DNA from: Fidelibacterota bacterium | Lineage (GTDB): Bacteria; Fidelibacterota; Marinisomatia; SCGC-AAA003-L08; D37C17 | Reading direction: 5' to 3' | NCBI GenBank assembly: GCA_002718585.1 | Contig: PBFG01000019.1 | Coordinates: 33,086 to 97,085, forward strand | DNA length: 64,000 bases | Shown here: positions 10,449 through 34,867 of the stretch, in pieces | How positions within the stretch are numbered: position 1 is the first letter of the stretch | Layout: every line of letters begins with the position of its first letter | Notes under the pieces: generated by a model | Database searches by the model: none | Told to the model about the DNA's origin: nothing | The model's input: the letters and a program-made list of their open reading frames with translations, nothing else | Made by a program: the position numbers and the translations under genes

Positions 10449-11897
10449 TTAGGTTCCACAAAATGTTTTATAAGTTTCATCAAAGCCATCAGGAGTAGTT
10501 TGAAACCTATCAAGATTTACACCATATTCATACGTATTAGCCATTTGATGTAATATTTTATCAAATTCCTCTTTATTACCGTTTATTGCATTATTTAAAG
10601 CAGATTCTACTAAATGATTTCTTGGAATATAAATGGGATTATTTTTTTTCATTATTATTAGACTATTTTTATCATTTTTAACTCTTTCTTTCCACTTTTT
10701 TAACCAATTTTTAAAATCAGAAGATTGAAATAATAAATCTTTATTTGATTTATTTAATGTTAAACTTAAAAAGGTATTCGTATAATCTGCCCTATGCAAT
10801 TCCATGAGTTCTAATAAATCGTTGATAAATTGCTCATCTGATTTTTCAGGATTTGTTATTCCAATTTTACTAAACATCATGCTATACCAATTATTTGAAA
10901 AATAAGCAGAAAACTCATCTAATATATTTTGAGCTAAATCAATAGCTTTATTCTGATCTTTATGAATGAAAGGTAAAAGAGTACCTGCAAAAACTGATAA
11001 ATTCCAATAAGCTATTTTGTGCTGGTTTCCGAAAGCATATCTACCATGTCTATCAATTGAACTAAAAACGGTTTTAGGATTATATTTATTCATGAACGCG
11101 CAAGGTCCATAATCAATTGTCTCTCCAGTAATAATCATATTATCTGTGTTCATGACTCCATGTATAAATCCAACTCTAATCCAACTAATAACCAAATCAA
11201 TTTGTTTTCTCATAACAGTCTTCAATAAATCAGTGCATGGTGAATCACTACCAGATATATCTGGATAATATCGTTTGATAACATAATCGATAAAATCTTT
11301 AAAATCCTTTTGCGAACAAAAATGTTTTGCGTATTCAAAAGTTCCCACTCTTATATGACTAGATGAAACTCTGCTTAGGATCCCTCCATTATTAATTGTT
11401 TCTCTAAATACACTTTCACCAGTATTAATAACCGCTAAACTTCTGGTGGTCGGAATATTTAAAAAATACATTGACTCACTCATTAAATATTCTCTGAGCA
11501 TTGAACTCAAGGTCGCCCTACCATCACCTGCTCTAGAAAAGGGAGTTTGGCCAGAACCCTTAAGCTGAATATCAAAAAATCTGTTATCTAAAGCTTTTTG
11601 TTCCCCAAGTAAGATTGCTCTACCATCTCCAAGCATTGTAAAATTACCAAATTGATGTCCTGCATAAGCTTGTGCGATGGGATTTGAGTTATTTGGTAGG
11701 ATATTTCCTGACAAATAACCAGTAATCTTACTAACATCATTATTTAGAAATTCTAAATTTAGCTGTTTTGAAAGCTTTTCGTTAAAATATACTAATTTAG
11801 GATTTTTAACTTTAATAGGTTTAATTTTCTTATAGAATGAACTTGGAAGTTCTATATAACTATTTTGAAGGCTCCAGTTTTCGTTTGTTGTTTTCAT
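10449..11897 (-). CDS. selO: Protein adenylyltransferase SelO/YdiU (UPF0061)
   Basis: Motifs AGHQFGNF..LGDGRA, GSGQTPFSRAGDGRA and HGVMNTDNM. It ends ..FCGT with Cys at the antepenultimate position and has no in-frame TGA. Confidence 0.88.
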   Translation of the reverse strand: MKTTNENWSLQNSYIELPSSFYKKIKPIKVKNPKLVYFNEKLSKQLNLEFLNNDVSKITGYLSGNILPNNSNPIAQAYAGHQFGNFTMLGDGRAILLGEQKALDNRFFDIQLKGSGQTPFSRAGDGRATLSSMLREYLMSESMYFLNIPTTRSLAVINTGESVFRETINNGGILSRVSSSHIRVGTFEYAKHFCSQKDFKDFIDYVIKRYYPDISGSDSPCTDLLKTVMRKQIDLVISWIRVGFIHGVMNTDNMIITGETIDYGPCAFMNKYNPKTVFSSIDRHGRYAFGNQHKIAYWNLSVFAGTLLPFIHKDQNKAIDLAQNILDEFSAYFSNNWYSMMFSKIGITNPEKSDEQFINDLLELMELHRADYTNTFLSLTLNKSNKDLLFQSSDFKNWLKKWKERVKNDKNSLIIMKKNNPIYIPRNHLVESALNNAINGNKEEFDKILHQMANTYEYGVNLDRFQTTPDGFDETYKTFCGT

Positions 11898-21761: not shown

Positions 21762-22421
21762 ATGAATAAACTTATTTCTCTATTTATAGTACTTACTTCA
21801 TTGGTCTTTTCACAAGATAGAAGTATTATTTTTAGTACTGGTACACCTGATTCAACATCTGGGTTTTTAATTGATAATACTAATTCTTATGCAAATAGAT
21901 TCTCCGTTAATGTAGATTTTGTTTTAGAGGCTATGAATTTTTTCATGACATCAGAAAACCAGGAAAATTCAAATATTCATATATCAATTAGGGAAGATTT
22001 AAACGGAATACCTGGTGAACTTGTATCTGAATTTTCTGAATGGAACTATACTATTGATTTTGATCATCCATTTAACTACAATCTTATTCAAACCACAAAT
22101 TTGTGCGTTTATCTAGATAGCGGAAATTACTATTGGTTTGTTATAGAGGCAGCTGACAATTTAACTGAAGTTTCATGGATATATTCAAATTCTCCTTTAT
22201 ATCAAATAGCATCAAGCCAAGATTCAGGTATTTCATGGCAAACTGATGTTTCTTATGCTGGTGCTGGTTCAATTTTTGGAGAACAAATATATGTTCAAGA
22301 ATCATCAGAGGGTGATTTGAATTCAGATTTTACAACAAATGTTGTAGATATTGTTTCACTTGTAAGCTACGTACTTGGAGAATCTTCATTTGATCAAGAA
22401 CAGTTAATAATAGCAGATTAA
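21762..22421 (+). CDS. Secreted protein of unknown function ending in a dockerin-type repeat; it terminates at a TAA inside the second dockerin repeat
   Basis: Signal peptide MNKLISLFIVLTSLVFSQ and dockerin repeat GDLNSDFTTNVVDIVSLVSYVLG. The frame continues past the TAA into 22422..23051. Confidence 0.55.
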   Translation: MNKLISLFIVLTSLVFSQDRSIIFSTGTPDSTSGFLIDNTNSYANRFSVNVDFVLEAMNFFMTSENQENSNIHISIREDLNGIPGELVSEFSEWNYTIDFDHPFNYNLIQTTNLCVYLDSGNYYWFVIEAADNLTEVSWIYSNSPLYQIASSQDSGISWQTDVSYAGAGSIFGEQIYVQESSEGDLNSDFTTNVVDIVSLVSYVLGESSFDQEQLIIAD

Positions 22422-22460
22422 AATAGAGACGGTCTTATTAATGTAGTTGATATTGTTGCA

Positions 22461-23051
22461 ATGGTTAGCATTGTTTTGAGTCCACCACTCCAAGTATCTG
22501 ACTTTAACCTGGAAGACATTAATCCTGCATCAAATTACTATAGTCAAGAAATTGGACCTTCATTTTTTTCAGGACAAGTATCAGCTTACTATTTTGGGAA
22601 ACAAGGCTGAACTACATGTAAAGCCCGGTTCGGGATTCTTAATGATTTATATAATGAGTTACTTGCAGAAGGTATAGATGATGTTAAGATAATGGGTATC
22701 AATGGCTTTCAGTACATTGAAGATAGTGTTGATTGTATGATATGTAATGATGAGTGTACCTCTAATACATGTTCATCGGGACCTAGAGTATTATCGTGGT
22801 CTCAAGATTATGATGATGGATTAAATTGTTTAGATGAAAATCAAGGTATATGCGAAGCATTAGATGGCGATGGTGACGTTTGGGAATTAATGGATGCTAC
22901 CTTAAGAGATTTTGTTATAGTTGATAGAAATGGAAATGAATTTGCAAGAGTTAACTTGACTTATAACAACCCTGATCCGACTGAAATTGGAGAATGTACT
23001 GGTAACTATCAAAAAATTAAAGATTTAATTCTTTCAGCCCGCAACAGATAA
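22461..23051 (+). CDS. Thioredoxin-fold protein with in-frame TGA (candidate Sec) in a UxxC motif; true start uncertain (first ATG after the TAA is used here)
   Basis: Same frame as 21762..22421. It reads ..VSAYYFGKQG-TGA-TTCKARFG.. and joins the tracked ORF 22692..23051. It is paralogous to 27683..28342 and 28458..29111. Confidence 0.5.
22621..22640 (+). promoter_or_regulatory. SECIS-like hairpin downstream of TGA 22608
   Basis: AAG-CCCG-GUU-CGGG-(AUU bulge)-CUU. The loop G lies 20 nt after the U of UGA. It is built from GC-rich codons (gcc cgg ttc ggg) in an AT-rich gene. Confidence 0.5.
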
Positions 23052-23131: not shown

Positions 23132-23776
23132 ATGATAGTAACTAAACCAGCACCTGAATTTAAGACACAGGCTGTTATGCCTGACAATTCAATACAAGAA
23201 GTAAAATTATCTGATTATAAAGGCAAAAAAGTTGTTCTTTTCTTTTATCCTTTAGATTTTACTTTTGTTTGCCCGACAGAATTATTAGCATTTGATAAAA
23301 GACTTTCTGAATTTGAATCTAGAGGCGTTCAAGTTTTAGGTTGTTCTGTTGATTCCAGATGGAGTCATCTTGCCTGGAAAAATACTGATGTAAACAAAGG
23401 TGGTATTGGTAATGTTCAGTATCCAATATTACAAGATTTAGATAAATCAATCGCTAGAAGTTTTGATGTTTTAGTTGGATCAACTCCTGCTACAGTGTAC
23501 ACTCAGGATACAGAAGTGGATACCACTGTTGGGGGTGGTGTTGCACTTAGAGCATCATTTTTAATTGATGAAGAAGGAATAGTTAGGCACGCAGTGATAA
23601 ATGACCTTCCACTTGGAAGAAATATTGATGAAATGGTTAGAATGGTAGATGCTTTAACTCATCATCAAAAACATGGTGAAGTTTGTCCAGCTGGTTGGAA
23701 AGATGGTGATAACGCCATGGAAGAGTCCCCAGATGGAGTTTCAAGTTACCTATCTGATAACGCAGATAATTTATAA
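23132..23776 (+). CDS. Typical 2-Cys peroxiredoxin (AhpC/Prx1 family)
   Basis: Peroxidatic motif FFYPLDFTFVCPTE and resolving motif GEVCPAGW. Strong RBS aaggag. Confidence 0.9.
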   Translation: MIVTKPAPEFKTQAVMPDNSIQEVKLSDYKGKKVVLFFYPLDFTFVCPTELLAFDKRLSEFESRGVQVLGCSVDSRWSHLAWKNTDVNKGGIGNVQYPILQDLDKSIARSFDVLVGSTPATVYTQDTEVDTTVGGGVALRASFLIDEEGIVRHAVINDLPLGRNIDEMVRMVDALTHHQKHGEVCPAGWKDGDNAMEESPDGVSSYLSDNADNL

Positions 23777-23785
23777 GGAGATTTA

Positions 23786-24217
23786 ATGAAAAAAGAAATA
23801 GTATATGCACATTGTGATGGACCTTGCGGAATTTACGATCCTGCAAGTGCTAGAATAGCAGCCGAAGCTGTGCTATCAATGACAAAAAAAATGTTAGAAC
23901 TAAAAGTTCCAGAAGATTCTGAAGCCATGGCTCATTATACAAATACAATGAGTCGATATGCTAGTATTAAAGAAGAAGAAGCTCAAAAATGTAAGGACGA
24001 AGTACTTATTCTTTGGACAGATTTTTTTAAACCTGAACATTTAAGTTCTCATCCAGATTTACATACTTTATTTTGGAATACAGCTAAATTATGTAGTTCT
24101 TGTAAGGTGGAGATTTCCATTGATCATGCAAATGAATTATTAGATCATGTTCATAAGATTCATGATTTATTTTGGTCCGTAAAAAATAGAAAAATTGATT
24201 GGTATACTGCTGGATAG
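23786..24217 (+). CDS. sodN: Nickel superoxide dismutase precursor
   Basis: Ni-hook HCDGPCGIYDP immediately after a short propeptide MKKEIVYA. About 140 aa, four-helix type. Confidence 0.92.
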   Translation: MKKEIVYAHCDGPCGIYDPASARIAAEAVLSMTKKMLELKVPEDSEAMAHYTNTMSRYASIKEEEAQKCKDEVLILWTDFFKPEHLSSHPDLHTLFWNTAKLCSSCKVEISIDHANELLDHVHKIHDLFWSVKNRKIDWYTAG

Positions 24218-24900: not shown

Positions 24901-24981
24901 GGAGAGGTGGACAACGGCTGTCGAGCGGTCTTGAAAACCGTCGCCCCTATGGGGTTGCAGGTTCGAATCCTGTCCTCTCCG
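24901..24981 (+). tRNA. tRNA-Ser (anticodon UGA)
   Basis: GGAGAGG acceptor paired with CCUCUCC, anticodon loop CUUGAAA, long variable arm (GCCCCUAUGGGGU) and T-loop GGTTCGAATCC. Confidence 0.88.
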
Positions 24982-24993
24982 CAATAATTCAAT

Positions 24994-25079
24994 GGAGAGT
25001 TGGCAGAGCGGTAATGCAGCGGATTGCTAATCCGTCGTGATGTAACAATCACGCGCGAGTTCAAATCTCGCACTCTCCG
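24994..25079 (+). tRNA. tRNA-Ser (anticodon GCU)
   Basis: GGAGAGU acceptor paired with ACUCUCC, anticodon loop UUGCUAA, long variable arm (GUGAUGUAACAAUCAC) and T-loop AGTTCAAATCT. Confidence 0.88.
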
Positions 25080-27682: not shown

Positions 27683-28342
27683 ATGAAAAGATATATTTTG
27701 ATATTATTATTTTCAAATCTACTTGCAAATGTATTTGAATATTCACTTTTGGATTACAATACGACATCCCCTACCCATCAACTAGATGTTTGGTACCCGG
27801 AATATTCTAATCACATTACAATGCATTATTTTGCAACTCAAGGATGAGCGGGCTGAACCGCAACATTTGGACAGTTGTCCAACTTTCAAGAAGAATTAAA
27901 AAACGATTATGGCTTCGAAAATGTTGTAATCATAGCAATTGGCCAAACTAATATTAGTAGTTTTAATAATAGTTTTTGCGCAAATTCTGATTTACCTCTA
28001 GTCATGGATGAATTTCCTGAGCTTCCAATTAGAGAACAATTTTCGCCTTATGGCGAATCACATGATTTTATAATTGTCGATTATGATGGTAATTATTTAG
28101 ATCACATTAACTTTTTAAGTTTAGGAAATATTGAAAAAAATTATATAATCGACGTACTAGAAGATAATTACAACCAAATAGTTTTGGGTGATGTTAATGG
28201 TGATACATTCGTTAATATTCAAGATGTCATTTTACTCGTTAATATGATACTTAGTAATTCATCTGATAATGTAGATGTAAATGGAGATGGCTCTACTAAT
28301 ATTTTGGATGTTATACAGATAGTTAATATTATTTTAAATTGA
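27683..28342 (+). CDS. Secreted thioredoxin-fold protein with two in-frame TGA codons (candidate UxxU redox motif) and a C-terminal dockerin pair
   Basis: The ATG at 27683 gives MKRYILILLFSNLLANV.. and ITMHYFATQG-TGA-AG-TGA-TATFGQL, in frame with tracked ORF 27875..28342. Dockerin repeats GDVNGDTFVNIQDVILLVNMIL and VDVNGDGSTNILDVIQIVNIIL. Confidence 0.55.
27867..27882 (+). promoter_or_regulatory. SECIS-like hairpin downstream of TGAs 27845 and 27854
   Basis: UUGGAC-AGUU-GUCCAA, a 6 bp stem. The loop G lies 20 nt after the second UGA and 29 nt after the first. Confidence 0.4.
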
Positions 28343-28417
28343 ATCAATTTTTTATTCTAATTTTTAAAATTTAATTAAATCTCTTGTATTTAATTCAATT
28401 ATCACCTTAAATTAAAA

Positions 28418-28432
28418 CGTGCAAAACGTGCA
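28418..28432 (+). promoter_or_regulatory. CGTGCA-N3-CGTGCA direct repeat upstream of the 28458 gene
   Basis: cgtgcaaaacgtgca is a GC-rich island in an AT-rich spacer, 26 nt before the ATG. The same motif occurs twice upstream of proteorhodopsin. Confidence 0.35.
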
Positions 28433-28457
28433 ATTAAAAATTTATGGAGAATTTTAT

Positions 28458-29111
28458 ATGAGAGTTTTTTTAATGTTATTAATAACATCTTTTAGTTTTA
28501 GTCAATACGCTTACAGTCTAACTGATAATAATAGTTCATCTGATTATTACCTAGAAAATGTCGGTCCAGAATATTTTGAAAATCAAATAACCATGCATTA
28601 TTTTGGAAGCTTTACATGAGGTCTGTGTAATTCGCGGTTCGCGCAATTAAACACCTTATATGAGTCCTTACTTGATAGTGGATATGACCAAGTTAAACTT
28701 ATTGGAATAGGCTACAGTTATCAATCTAATTCTTACAGTAATTGGTCAAATTCAAATGAATTCTCATCAGTTTGTTATGATGATAGCAACAATCCTACTT
28801 TTAATAGCTGGGGAGCGAGTCAAAGAGATTTTTATGTTTTAGACCACGAAAAGAATCTTGTCCTGGAACAAAATATTTCTGGAGGATTACCTGATAATCT
28901 TGAATCCCTAATCATTAACCTAATAAGCGATATACCAAACGAAATAATTAATGGTGATTTTAACCAAGATGGAGTATTAAATGTAGTAGATGTTGTTTCA
29001 ATTATTAATTTAGTTTTAACTAATCAATATAATGAGATTGCTGATGTTAATAGTGATAATTTATTAAATGTAGTAGATATTGTAATGCTAGTTAATCTAA
29101 TAATATCCTAA
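28458..29111 (+). CDS. Secreted thioredoxin-fold protein with in-frame TGA (candidate Sec, UxxC) and a C-terminal dockerin pair
   Basis: MRVFLMLLITSFSFSQ signal peptide and ITMHYFGSFT-TGA-GLCNSRFAQL. The frame stays open to the TAA at 29109. Dockerin repeats GDFNQDGVLNVVDVVSIINLVL and ADVNSDNLLNVVDIVMLVNLII. The ORF track reports only the part before the TGA. Confidence 0.6.
28629..28648 (+). promoter_or_regulatory. SECIS-like hairpin downstream of TGA 28617
   Basis: AAUU-CGCG-GUU-CGCG-(C bulge)-AAUU. The loop G lies 20 nt after the U of UGA, with the same CGGUUCG core as the hairpin at 22621. Confidence 0.5.
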
Positions 29112-31182: not shown

Positions 31183-31872
31183 ATGGAATATTTAACATGG
31201 CTGGTTCCCGGCCACGAAAATTTCTTAGTAAGTTTCTCATTTTGGTTTGCAACAGCAATGATGCTTGCCGCAACAGCCTTTTTTTACGTTGAGAGAAGGG
31301 ACGTTAATGCTAAGTGGAAAACTTCACTTACAGTAGCAATGCTTGTTACAGGAATCGCATTTTGGCATTATTTATATATGACAGATTACTTTTTCGCAAC
31401 AGGTAACTCACCAATCGTCTTAAGATATGTTGATTGGTTAATAACAGTACCATTACAAATTGTAGAATTTTACTTGATACTTGCAGCAGTAACTACAGTA
31501 TCAAAATCATTATTCTGGCAATTATTAGTAGCATCACTTGTGATGTTAGTTGGTGGATTCTTAGGAGAAGCAGGATTAATGGCTAGAATGCCTGCCTTTG
31601 TAATAGGAATGCTTGGTTGGTTTGGAGTCTTATACCTTATATTCATGGGTGAGGCAGCAAAAGCTAACGACGCCAGTGGTAATGAAGCTGGACAAAAAGC
31701 ATTTAGTGCTTTAAAATGGATTGTACTAGTTGGTTGGGCAATGTATCCGATCGGCTACTATTTAGATGGTACAGGACATACAACAGATATCGTTTATAAC
31801 TTTGCTGACTTAGTTAATAAAGCAGCTTTTGGCCTTGTAATTTGGGCTGCAGCTAAATCAGATAAATCATAA
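31183..31872 (+). CDS. Proteorhodopsin, proton-pumping (DTE motif), blue-tuned (Gln at position 105)
   Basis: RYVDWLITVPLQIVEFYLIL gives D97, T101, Q105 and E108 by alignment to green PR. Schiff-base Lys is in FADLVNKAAFGLVIW and His is in AFWHYLYM. Strong RBS aggagg at 31169. Confidence 0.93.
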   Translation: MEYLTWLVPGHENFLVSFSFWFATAMMLAATAFFYVERRDVNAKWKTSLTVAMLVTGIAFWHYLYMTDYFFATGNSPIVLRYVDWLITVPLQIVEFYLILAAVTTVSKSLFWQLLVASLVMLVGGFLGEAGLMARMPAFVIGMLGWFGVLYLIFMGEAAKANDASGNEAGQKAFSALKWIVLVGWAMYPIGYYLDGTGHTTDIVYNFADLVNKAAFGLVIWAAAKSDKS

Positions 31873-31881
31873 ACGCCACCG

Positions 31882-31915
31882 AAAAAGGGAATTCGTTTTT
31901 TGAATTCCCTTTTTC
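31882..31915 (+). terminator. Rho-independent terminator/attenuator after proteorhodopsin
   Basis: AAAAAGGGAATTC-gtttttt-GAATTCCCTTTTT, a perfect 13 bp stem with a T-rich 3' side. Confidence 0.7.
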
Positions 31916-31923
31916 ACTTAACG

Positions 31924-32886
31924 ATGAATTATAAGATTTTAAACCAAAAAATTTCTTTTATATTTCTTCGAGTAACTTTTCTATTATTTGCCATTGCAGC
32001 TGTAGCACCTAATTTTAACAATTTAATACTTAACGACTACTTTTGTTCCTTTCTCATACTGACAATTGGATTATCTCATGGAGCTTTAGATAACCAAAAA
32101 GGTAAAATTGTCTTAGATTTTTTTAAATCCAATAAAATGTCGCTGTTTTATATTGCTTATGTGGCTTTTTCAATTATTGCAATCAGTTGCTGGTATAACT
32201 TTCCAACGATAAGCTTACTGACATTATTAATTATTGGACCCTATCACTTTGGTAAGGATGATTGTGATCTGTTTAAGATTAATAAATTTAGTTTTAGAAA
32301 TATAATTTTTTTTGTTAAGGGCACTGTAGTTATAAGTGCCCCACTTCTGTTTAATTTTAATGAAACAATTGATATATTTAAAATACTTTCATCAGATTCA
32401 AATTTTTTAATATCATCATTATTATACTTAAATGAAAATAATTTAATTTTATTTTTTGTATTATTTGGTTTTATCAGTTCAATATATCTTCCAAGAGATT
32501 TTTCAATTAAATTTTTATTGTACGTTGAATTTACATCTATTATTCTTTTAAACTATTTATTTAAGCCCTATGCAGCATTTACAATATATTTTTGTTTTCT
32601 TCATTCAATGAGGCATATAATTGTCTTGAATAAAAGCTTAAACTTATTAAAACCAAAAAATAAAAAACCAAAAACTTCAGTTTTTAATATATTCAATAAT
32701 TTTTATAAGCATGCATTAAAGTTAACTTTAATTTCATCCTTTATCTTTCTATCATGCATGTATGTGAGTTCAAATCTACTTTACGTTGATGATACTCTAT
32801 TAAAGATAATTTTTCCAGGCTTAGCTGCATTAACTCTACCTCATATAATTTTAGATTTCTTGTATGAAAAAATAAAAGCTTATTAG
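31924..32886 (+). CDS. blh: Brp/Blh-family beta-carotene 15,15'-dioxygenase (retinal synthesis)
   Basis: Polytopic membrane protein with four conserved His contexts (LSHGALD, GPYHFGKDD, FLHSMRH, LPHIILD), directly downstream of the rhodopsin. I prefer the ATG at 31924 because the tracked TTG at 31900 lies inside the terminator stem. Confidence 0.8.
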   Translation: MNYKILNQKISFIFLRVTFLLFAIAAVAPNFNNLILNDYFCSFLILTIGLSHGALDNQKGKIVLDFFKSNKMSLFYIAYVAFSIIAISCWYNFPTISLLTLLIIGPYHFGKDDCDLFKINKFSFRNIIFFVKGTVVISAPLLFNFNETIDIFKILSSDSNFLISSLLYLNENNLILFFVLFGFISSIYLPRDFSIKFLLYVEFTSIILLNYLFKPYAAFTIYFCFLHSMRHIIVLNKSLNLLKPKNKKPKTSVFNIFNNFYKHALKLTLISSFIFLSCMYVSSNLLYVDDTLLKIIFPGLAALTLPHIILDFLYEKIKAY

Positions 32887-33322: not shown

Positions 33323-34867
33323 ATGAAAATTTTACTTCTAAATACAATTATATGTTTTTCTTTATTATCAGCTGCTTTAGTAGATGATGAAATCTCATTA
33401 AAAGTAGCTCAAAATACTTTTATAAAATACCACCCCTCTAAAAATATTGATGAGTTTAATATTAAGAGTATTGATATCATTAAAAATCAAGATGATTCAT
33501 TAATTAAAATTTATCAATTAAACCCTACAGGTTTTATAATGGTATCTCTAGAAGATAAGACACTTCCTGTTCTTGCATATGGTTTTGAATCTAATTTCAA
33601 ATTGGTTGATATGCCAGATAACTTATCTTACATCATTAATTTATATAAAAATCAAATAATAGATGCTAGAAACTCTATTTCTGTCAGATCACAAGAAATA
33701 GAATCAGAATGGAACTCACTAATTACACCAAATAATAATGAAATTGATAGAGAAAGTTCTAGAAATGTAAGTCCACTTATAGATGCTAGATTTGATCAAG
33801 GTGGTGCTTGGAATAATGCTTTAATACAATTTGGCTTTAATGGTCCTGTTGGATGTGTAGCAGTATCTATGGCCCAAATTATGCACTACTGGGAATATCC
33901 AGAGCAAGGATCAGGTTCTAATTCATATGTTGAAGATGATTATGGTATTCTTGAAGCAAATTTTGGTCAAGCATTCTATGATTACAGTAGCATGGCAAAT
34001 ACTTATGCTACTTCTGCTTCTCAATTACTACTTCATCATTCAGGAATTTCGGTTAATATGGACTATGCAAATTCGGGTTCTGGAGCATATGTAACTGGTT
34101 CTTATCCCTCAGCTCAGTATGCATTAGAAACCTATTTTTTATATGATGATGGAGTTTATGCTGTAACAAAAGATAGCTATACAACCTCAGAATTTAGAGA
34201 TTTTCTTATTAATGAGCTAGATAACAATAGACCTATTTTATATAGTGGTTATAGTGATACTTACGGAAATGGTGGACATGCTTGGAATGTTGATGGATAT
34301 CAAGGTAATAGTGTTCATTGTAATTGGGGCTGGGGTGGTTCTAATAATGGATATTTTAATTTAAATACTATGGGTGGTTTTGAAGCAGACCAAACTGCTT
34401 TGATTAATCTAATTCCTCAGTCATATACTAATCCGTTAGCTTTATTTGAATATGAAATTGACGAGATGACTGCTATTTTTATAGACTTATCAGAATTTGT
34501 TAATGAAACCCAAATAAGTAGTTGGAACTGGGATTTTGGCGATGGCAATAGCGTTTCTAATAGCTATAGTTATGCTGAACACTCATATTCTAATCCTGGA
34601 GAATATGAAGTAAAACTTACAGTTACTAATATTTATGGACAAACAGGTGCTGAACATTCTGAGCTTATTCAAATAGGATCTCCTATTCTACCAGGTGATA
34701 TTAATATTGATGAACTAGTTAACATTTTAGATGTAGTAATGTTAATAAACTTTGTTTTGGGTTCAGTTAATCCTAGTGATGCAGAATTCAACTCTGGTGA
34801 TTATAATTTAGATGGTTTTCTAAATGTCCTAGATGTTGTATTGATTATTAACTTAATCCTTGATTAG
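33323..34867 (+). CDS. Secreted C10-family cysteine peptidase (streptopain-like) with Spi-type prodomain, PKD domain and C-terminal dockerin pair
   Basis: Catalytic Cys in GCVAVSMAQIMHYW and His in GGHAWNVDGY. PKD signature WNWDFGDGN...YEVKLTVTN. Dockerin repeats GDINIDELVNILDVVMLINFVLG and GDYNLDGFLNVLDVVLIINLIL. Confidence 0.85.
   Translation: MKILLLNTIICFSLLSAALVDDEISLKVAQNTFIKYHPSKNIDEFNIKSIDIIKNQDDSLIKIYQLNPTGFIMVSLEDKTLPVLAYGFESNFKLVDMPDNLSYIINLYKNQIIDARNSISVRSQEIESEWNSLITPNNNEIDRESSRNVSPLIDARFDQGGAWNNALIQFGFNGPVGCVAVSMAQIMHYWEYPEQGSGSNSYVEDDYGILEANFGQAFYDYSSMANTYATSASQLLLHHSGISVNMDYANSGSGAYVTGSYPSAQYALETYFLYDDGVYAVTKDSYTTSEFRDFLINELDNNRPILYSGYSDTYGNGGHAWNVDGYQGNSVHCNWGWGGSNNGYFNLNTMGGFEADQTALINLIPQSYTNPLALFEYEIDEMTAIFIDLSEFVNETQISSWNWDFGDGNSVSNSYSYAEHSYSNPGEYEVKLTVTNIYGQTGAEHSELIQIGSPILPGDINIDELVNILDVVMLINFVLGSVNPSDAEFNSGDYNLDGFLNVLDVVLIINLILD

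Follow-up and report, generated by a model that had tools for sequence, protein, structure and literature searches.

The stretch of DNA analysed here, referred to as the window, comprises 64,000 nucleotides of contig PBFG01000019.1 from a Fidelibacterota bacterium (assembly GCA_002718585.1; positions 33,086 to 97,085 of the forward strand) and has a G+C content of 28.7%. On its forward strand, three paralogous genes for thioredoxin-like proteins were identified, in which the reading frame is crossed by TGA at the place of a redox motif. Two of them, designated locus 1 (21762..23051) and locus 3 (28458..29111), contain one such TGA and a cysteine at the second motif position (UxxC, with U standing for selenocysteine). 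The gene designated locus 2 (27683..28342) contains two in-frame TGAs and is the subject of this paper. As suggested by the comparative evidence described below, both UGAs of locus 2 very probably code for selenocysteine (Sec), and the predicted product contains a UxxU motif.

For locus 2, the ATG at 27683 opens the frame with MKRYILILLFSNLLANVFEY..., and the first 18 codons (MKRYILILLFSNLLANVF, 27683..27736, + strand) have the hydrophobic composition of a signal peptide, as judged by eye; the orthologues are equivalently hydrophobic at this place. The frame continues as ...ITMHYFATQG-TGA-AG-TGA-TATFGQLSNFQEEL... and contains no further stop until 28340-28342, where the gene ends at a TGA of its own. 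The first in-frame UGA is codon 55 (27845..27847) and the second is codon 58 (27854..27856), corresponding to positions 1 and 2 of the redox motif, and both are putative Sec codons in a coding sequence of 219 codons. Behind the second UGA, the hairpin UUGGAC-AGUU-GUCCAA is present at 27867..27882 (+ strand), with the arms TTGGAC at 27867-72 and GTCCAA at 27877-82. The stem starts 10 nt past the second UGA, and the G of the loop (27874) is located at +29 from the first and at +20 from the second UGA. The original prediction, made by a model from the letters of this DNA, had described the frame from 27683 with its signal-peptide-like start as joining the open reading frame (ORF) 27875..28342, TGA at both positions equivalent to a CxxC motif, and the hairpin with its two spacings. 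Each of these was found again where it had been placed, including the +20 spacing shared with loci 1 and 3.

To compare locus 2 with its relatives, the read-through protein was used in a search which retrieved 736 homologues, the best 120 of them at full length. In addition, DNA was scanned with a profile of the 115 residues following the second TGA. This gave 27 loci on contigs from a collection with one genome per species and 80 loci in JGI metagenomes. Candidatus Neomarinimicrobiota / Marinimicrobia accounts for 17 of the 27 genome-contig loci (metagenome-assembled genomes, MAGs, and one single-amplified genome), and the other 10 are MAGs. For the count of TGAs, copies were used in which the motif region lies on the contig, which resulted in 109 copies (from 105 loci and the window) with protein identities of 47-100%. 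The pattern TGA-NNN-NNN-TGA was present in 109 of 109 copies, all 27 genome-contig loci being among them, and a codon for Cys, Trp or any other residue was never identified at either site. In every complete copy, the frame extends without a stop over 161-166 codons past the second TGA, the remaining copies run off their contigs, and none of the 109 relatives contains an additional stop or a frameshift downstream. The closest relatives include the Tara contig L030, which is 100% identical to locus 2 over the 115-residue query, and the protein record P0001, which is 94% identical.

The region after the second TGA was shown to be under purifying selection. The ratios of nonsynonymous to synonymous substitutions (dN/dS, Nei-Gojobori) were 0.145 and 0.115 in comparison to two close relatives for which dS is not saturated. 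For 100 pairs, the median was 0.18, and the mean column identity across the 115 residues following the second UGA was 79%. Conservation of the TGAs and dN/dS downstream of them had been proposed as checks together with the original prediction. Both have turned out in favour of read-through, with a second TGA that never varies and dN/dS values of 0.12-0.18. Neither of the findings named there as refuting the prediction, extra stops or frameshifts downstream or a variable second TGA, was observed. From its conservation, locus 2 is judged to be a functional gene of Marinimicrobia (SAR406), coding for a predicted secreted protein of ~219 residues. On some Marinimicrobia contigs, two UxxU genes are arranged in tandem (L001:1242-1907 and 1938-2606; also L053, L062 and L064), with the motif types 'QG-U-AG-U-TAT' and 'QG-U-GG/AG-U-T[GS]T', which implies that the UxxU subfamily itself has been duplicated.

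The predicted protein consists of the signal peptide, a thioredoxin-fold domain related to the Prx-like 2 and TUGYCR families (27740..28180, + strand, ~residues 20-165; NF053656, AlphaFold2 and Foldseek) and a C-terminal dockerin type I module (28184..28333, + strand). The latter was identified by Pfam PF00404 (Dockerin_1) in residues 168-217 with 32.5 bits (cut-off 22.9). For the former, NCBIfam NF053656 matched residues 19-145 (E = 4.1e-20, 72.2 bits), and Pfam Thioredoxin_8 gave a weak match. An AlphaFold2 model was made for P0001 with 57 homologues and reached a pLDDT of 77.7. It consists of an N-terminal helix (residues 2-15), a low-confidence linker and a beta-alpha-beta...beta-beta-alpha thioredoxin topology. 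Residues 55 and 58 are located in the first turn of helix 1 (residues 55-74), immediately after strand 1 (residues 45-50), so that in the model the UGA positions correspond to the CxxC position of the thioredoxin fold. Among the relatives, an invariant His (H48) precedes the motif, and an invariant L-P-L-V-M-D segment precedes strand 3, with its Pro, by eye, at the place of the cis-Pro of the oxidoreductases. A Foldseek search of the Protein Data Bank gave 62 matches with E <= 0.001, and all 50 among the matches listed are thioredoxin-fold proteins. These matches (ResA, DsbE, GPx, Sco and Prx) are generic, with TM scores of 0.5-0.6 and identities of 10-16%, and a close structure for the model was not found in that database. 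In some relatives, a tail resembling a type IX secretion sorting signal ('NYPNPFNP...', by eye) replaces the dockerin, which also fits an export to the cell surface.

In E. coli fdhF, the G and U in the apical loop of the bacterial Sec insertion sequence (SECIS) are determinants for SelB binding, and the hairpins described here resemble bacterial SECIS elements. For the hairpin of locus 2, an ungapped alignment of 91 distinct 75-nt cassettes was analysed. The stem is paired in 99.8% of all cells, and compensatory changes were identified at three of the six pairs. At pair 36/49, UA and CG are exchanged in 19 sequences, combining the synonymous change TTT to TTC with Asn to Asp. At pair 37/48, GC is exchanged with AU or UA in nine sequences, where Gly to Arg is accompanied by TCC to TCT and Gly to Trp by TCC to TCA. 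At pair 38/47, GC is exchanged with UA in two sequences, with Gly to Val accompanied by Ser to His. RNAalifold predicted the main helix for these cassettes and nothing else. An Rfam scan of the window at gathering thresholds matched no SECIS family.

The loop AGUU is invariant, being read as Gln CAG and Leu UUG in 91 of 91 cassettes. In the long ORFs of the window, CAG accounts for only 19% of the Gln codons and UUG for 12% of the Leu codons. As an internal control, the next Gln, which follows four codons later, has the common codon CAA in at least 90% of the sequences. In the stem, Gly is coded by GGG or GGA and never by GGT, and Ser mostly by TCC; TCC and GGG each represent ~5% of their codon family. 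Because the stem is paired in 99.8% of the cells, is maintained by compensations which change amino acids, is recovered by RNAalifold as a helix and carries invariant rare codons in its loop, the main hairpin is under selection at the RNA level.

As a single sequence, the 55-nt cassette of locus 2 gave a modest folding signal (z = -2.26, with 5 of 200 shuffled sequences equally stable). A second hairpin, GCGG-GCUGAA-CCGC, had been proposed to start directly after the first UGA and to hold the second UGA in its loop. This element is present in locus 2 (27848..27861, + strand, with the arms at 27848-51 and 27858-61), but it was rejected as a conserved element, since only 64% of its cells are paired in the alignment, three of the four pairs cannot form in 33-57 of the 91 sequences, and it is absent from the RNAalifold output. 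In the same region, a preference was observed for the Gly codon between the UGAs (27851-27853; alignment A2 columns 19-21), which is GGC in ~85% of the 91 cassettes, as judged by eye. GGC represents only ~10% of the Gly codons in the window, and 'GGC UGA A' is retained in a divergent lineage represented by the protein P0167. Possibly, the insertion of the second Sec requires this codon context.

Loci 1 and 3 allow a comparison with a single-Sec arrangement in the same genome. In locus 1, the TGA is located at 22608-22610 (...YYFGKQG-TGA-TTCKARFG) and is followed by the hairpin CCCG-GUU-CGGG at 22624-22634. In locus 3, which is arranged in tandem with locus 2, the TGA is located at 28617-28619 (...HYFGSFT-TGA-GLCNSRFAQL) and the hairpin CGCG-GUU-CGCG at 28633-28643. 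In both cases, the spacing from the single TGA to the loop G is +20. Cys is present at the second motif position in both and in many relatives of the wider family (U-x-x-Cys). Locus 1 exceeds the cut-off of NF053656 with 114.5 bits (cut-off 100), while locus 3 reaches 80.9 bits. When the proteins are aligned, the UxxU genes have their hairpin shifted downstream by three codons (9 nt) in comparison to the UxxC paralogues.

The same relation was found in more distant members. A second, divergent UxxU lineage (P0167, '...NUGGURSIFVQLCNL', L110-L115), also present in the GOS set, contains UUGUAC-AGUU-GUGCAA at the offset of locus 2. The UxxC relative L116 contains CCCG-GUU-CGGG at the offset +16..+26, as in loci 1 and 3. 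A scan for additional UxxC cassettes in the retrieved loci gave just the two of the window. Outside the window, a conserved in-frame TGA was also observed in a third family, 'SMNATW-TGA-PAC', of ~380 amino acids and with a thioredoxin-like motif (L001:2883, L020:1781, L009:2119 and ~30 other loci). In other Marinimicrobia, its gene is often located just downstream of the UxxU gene, and its hairpin CAUCA-GUU-UGAUG has the loop G at +25. A short stem with a loop containing G-U-U, 20-29 nt past the UGA, is recurrent in three gene families of these genomes.

For locus 1, an in-frame TAA was observed at 22419-22421 within the second dockerin repeat ('IIAD*NRDGLINVVDIV'). The gene otherwise forms one unit, coding for a signal peptide, an N-terminal domain of unknown type, a dockerin pair and the UxxC thioredoxin domain. 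Its closest orthologue, P0271 (93% identical, 108 member sequences), is uninterrupted and contains a Leu at the site of the TAA ('IIADLNRDG'). Since Leu is present there, the TAA of locus 1 is most readily explained by a nonsense mutation from TTA to TAA or an assembly error in this genome. For the N-terminal product of locus 1, no record with the exact sequence was found.

A protein family with these features has been described before. Zhang and Gladyshev (2008; PLoS Genet 4:e1000095, PMC2398784) reported Prx-like 2 as a family of the Sargasso Sea / GOS selenoproteomes, with several UxxU sequences, a weak similarity to SelP_N and a more frequent occurrence in marine samples. Their Table 2 contains 99 selenoproteins and 100 Cys homologues of Prx-like 2, and in 2008 the family had 'no strong homolog in any sequenced prokaryotic genome'. 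They also noted that genes for Prx and Prx-like 2 lay next to each other on one read. In Dataset S1 of PMC2398784, under #Prx-like 2, gene 2 of JCVI_READ_1092963166880 is given as '...ITMHYFATQGUAGuTATFGQLSNFQEELKNDYGFENVVIIAIGQ...'. Locus 2 is identical to this sequence in 160 of 167 positions (96%), and an orthologue of locus 3 is located on the same read. On the basis of this identity, locus 2 is assigned to Prx-like 2 and is effectively the protein already predicted in that paper to be a UxxU selenoprotein. In comparison to the account of 2008, the host is here placed in the Marinimicrobia, the architecture is complete with signal peptide and dockerin, and the SECIS is backed by covariation.

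Of the curated families, NF053656 (redoxin_TUGYCR) is the closest. It describes a homologous thioredoxin-fold domain with Sec at the first motif position, and locus 1 passes its cut-off. Locus 2, however, remains below it (72.2 against 100 bits), contains G-U-A-G-U-T instead of T-U-G-Y-C-R, has a second Sec in place of the resolving Cys, and has its hairpin 9 nt further downstream. By score and motif, locus 2 is thus placed outside the curated boundary of NF053656, as a homologue.

Selenoprotein L (SelL), reportedly described in 2007 by Shchedrina and co-workers, is said to be a thioredoxin-fold, peroxiredoxin-like protein with a UxxU motif, for which a diselenide was shown and in which one SECIS serves both Sec codons; it is reportedly found in aquatic organisms, including marine bacteria. 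To our knowledge, eukaryotic SelL is the only natural UxxU protein characterised biochemically. Locus 2 likewise combines a thioredoxin fold with UxxU as its redox motif. However, its product is predicted to be secreted and contains a dockerin. It was not classified as SelL because no match to AhpC-TSA or AhpC-TSA_2 was found at E <= 0.1 in the Pfam search on which this comparison was based. The best structural matches of the model are ResA/TlpA/DsbE (CcmG) and GPx proteins (2h1b, 1su9, 3gl3, 6vpd and 2r37; TM score of 0.5-0.6 when normalised to the target). Like the predicted product of locus 2, these are exported proteins of thioredoxin fold whose redox motif opens helix 1. In contrast, they share only 10-16% identity with it, contain CxxC (or a single U/C in GPx) instead of UxxU, and have no dockerin tail. 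The N-terminal domain of SelP (PF04592) is thioredoxin-like with UxxC and matched locus 1 weakly (E = 0.013, below the Pfam cut-off). It did not match locus 2, and SelP is a eukaryotic plasma protein with its SECIS in the 3'-UTR.

The reading of both UGAs as Sec has to be weighed against other ways of decoding them. A code check of the 68 ORFs in the window with 100 or more codons from stop to stop showed that 17 terminate at TGA, as does locus 2, and that internal TGAs occur in only a handful of long frames, the credible cases being exactly the three paralogues. TGA is an ordinary stop in this genome and is not reassigned, and global recoding was rejected. A reassignment of TGA to Trp or Gly (code 4 or 25), turning the motif into WxxW or GxxG with no redox centre, would fit the low G+C content, which many code-4 organisms share, and the public gene calls, in which the best 120 of the 736 homologues contain 'W..W' at the two positions. 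The latter is due to genes having been called with code 4: the DNA of P0120 contains TGA at both sites, and the code-4 translation of P0001 overruns its true stop into '...IILNWNNNPPFIK'. Since Cys is present at the second position in the paralogues, the site is that of CxxC in a thioredoxin fold and a conserved hairpin lies behind it, reassignment has only a very remote probability. A decaying paralogue had been named in the original prediction as the alternative to a functional gene. The TGAs would then be inactivating, with only ORF 27875..28342 or nothing at all expressed. Locus 1 in the same window indeed has an apparently inactivating TAA, and code-11 gene callers cut these genes at TGA. 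This explanation is, however, refuted by the same TGAs in 109 of 109 copies with no other stop or frameshift and by the dN/dS of 0.12-0.18; a thioredoxin fold and signal peptide which span the TGAs, together with the covarying hairpin, also argue against it, so that it retains practically no probability. That a single UGA is decoded as Sec, while the other is read inefficiently or by a near-cognate tRNA for Trp or Cys to give U-x-x-W/C or W/C-x-x-U, would agree with the usual spacing of +20 being present for the second UGA only, the first lying at +29. However, TGY or TGG would be expected in some of the 109 copies if Cys or Trp were intended, and the spacing is not rigid, as shown by the other family in the same genomes at +25. 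A published search model for bacterial SECIS reportedly accepts spacings of about 16-37 nt. One-Sec decoding is therefore considered quite improbable.

Even with two Sec residues, UxxU might serve as a site for soft metals (Hg, Cu, Cd or Zn) in surface binding or detoxification instead of a catalytic redox pair. Later reviews list several prokaryotic UxxU families, one of them annotated as metal-binding or mercuric-reductase-like; the copper chaperone Sco is also among the Foldseek matches of locus 2, and the invariant H48 lies ahead of the motif. On the other hand, the nearest relatives in sequence and structure are thiol-disulfide oxidoreductases and peroxidases, the Pro of L-P-L-V-M-D is by eye at the cis-Pro place, and a peroxiredoxin and a nickel superoxide dismutase (Ni-SOD) are encoded in the wider neighbourhood. 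A metal site is considered unlikely on these grounds. A UxxU redox centre with both TGAs read as Sec, proposed as a possibility in the original prediction, is supported by the fixed TGAs, the selection downstream, the covarying hairpin, the position in the thioredoxin fold and the Cys of the paralogues.

Several observations weigh against the reading of locus 2 as a two-Sec redox enzyme. The 6-bp hairpin by itself is short, and its folding as a single sequence is not significant (z = -1.4). In E. coli, the distance from a UGA to the minimal SECIS tolerates little variation, and one hairpin serving two UGAs 9 nt apart would therefore require flexibility of SelB. A tRNA-Sec was not detected in the window, either in the Rfam gathering scan or in an E-value scan around the tRNAs, of which there are three only. 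The one at 24901-24981 (+ strand; Rfam 40.7 bits) has a long variable arm and the anticodon UGA, not UCA, which makes it a tRNA-Ser(UGA), and it is followed by a tRNA-Ser(GCU) at 24994-25079. No selA, selB or selD was recognised by eye among the 50 ORFs of at least 130 amino acids in the window. One survey lists SelD in SAR406 single-cell genomes, which counts in favour of the reading, yet only as an 'orphan' SelD, and this was the sole relevant item in the literature on Marinimicrobia/SAR406 and selenocysteine or selenoproteins. A Cys codon at the first motif position was not identified in any relative inspected; for Cys homologues at this position, the basis is the 100 in the GOS table. Sec insertion in locus 2 is inferred from comparative evidence. 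The results are compatible with an oxidoreductase, a peroxidase or a metal-binding protein. The residual doubt whether both UGAs code for Sec arises from the unseen Sec machinery, the listing of SAR406 with SelD only and evidence that is comparative and not at the level of the protein. A SelO homologue at 10452-11897 (- strand; Pfam SelO, E = 1.4e-108), which ends in '...TFCGT', was set aside as a Cys-type adenylyltransferase unrelated to Sec insertion.

With both UGAs read as Sec, the following course can be proposed for locus 2. SelB with Sec-tRNA(Sec) would bind to the hairpin at 27867-27882 through its AGUU loop. Sec would be delivered first at the UGA at 27845, with the loop G at +29, and three codons later at the UGA at 27854, where the loop G has the +20 spacing of the paralogues with one Sec. 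The third TGA (28340), with no hairpin behind it, would terminate the protein. The product would consist of a signal peptide, the thioredoxin fold and a C-terminal dockerin-type module, which presumably tethers it at the cell surface, and its selenol pair would cycle with a diselenide. Most likely, it would be an extracytoplasmic redox catalyst working under oxic, sunlit conditions, as a thiol/selenol-disulfide oxidoreductase or in the reduction of peroxides; we infer the diselenide chemistry, the surface location and the physiological role.

The shift of the hairpin by 9 nt downstream places the second UGA at the usual +20 of the family and the first at +29. Tentatively, and with doubts that somewhat outweigh our confidence, the relocation might be seen as the adaptive step which allowed the resolving Cys to become Sec, so that one 16-nt hairpin would programme two Sec residues in a surface-tethered diselenide enzyme of a phylum that ranks among the most abundant uncultured ones of the ocean.

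The central claim of a UxxU protein is already known as a computational prediction from 2008. New are the Marinimicrobia host, the architecture of signal peptide, thioredoxin fold and dockerin, the covariation for a minimal SECIS with an AGUU loop, the 9-nt shift of the hairpin and the 'WxxW' or truncated database entries. Natural UxxU proteins, which can potentially form a diselenide, are rare. Members of the family described here abound in the Tara Oceans and GOS data, and its host, Marinimicrobia/SAR406, is a major uncultured lineage of the ocean. Locus 2 also represents a clean natural test of one minimal bacterial SECIS serving two UGAs 9 nt apart.

The records of the orthologues were observed to be wrong in two ways, either with Trp at the Sec sites (code 4), at times extended past the genuine TGA stop, or as fragments which start after the second TGA or end at a TGA (code 11). 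Such forms were seen in P0001-P0120, P0122-P0140 and P0271-P0300. For annotation, this means that hundreds of public 'WxxW' or shortened entries are wrong.

In the neighbourhood of the three genes, directly downstream of locus 1 (23132-24217, + strand), a 2-Cys-type AhpC/TSA peroxiredoxin with a 1-cysPrx_C domain (at 23132) and a Ni-SOD (at 23786) are encoded by adjoining genes. A proteorhodopsin (at 31183) and the beta-carotene dioxygenase Blh (at 31900) are encoded 3 kb downstream of locus 3 (31183-32886, + strand). These neighbouring genes agree with life in an oxic, sunlit environment and with an antioxidant role, without proving them. At 33323-34867 (+ strand), a Peptidase_C10 with a PKD domain was identified, which also bears a dockerin. 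Type I dockerins, located at the C-terminus or internally, are thus present in secreted proteins of unrelated types, namely this peptidase and the three thioredoxin-like selenoproteins (21762-23051 and 27683-29111), and the dockerin seems to be a general module for surface anchoring in this organism.

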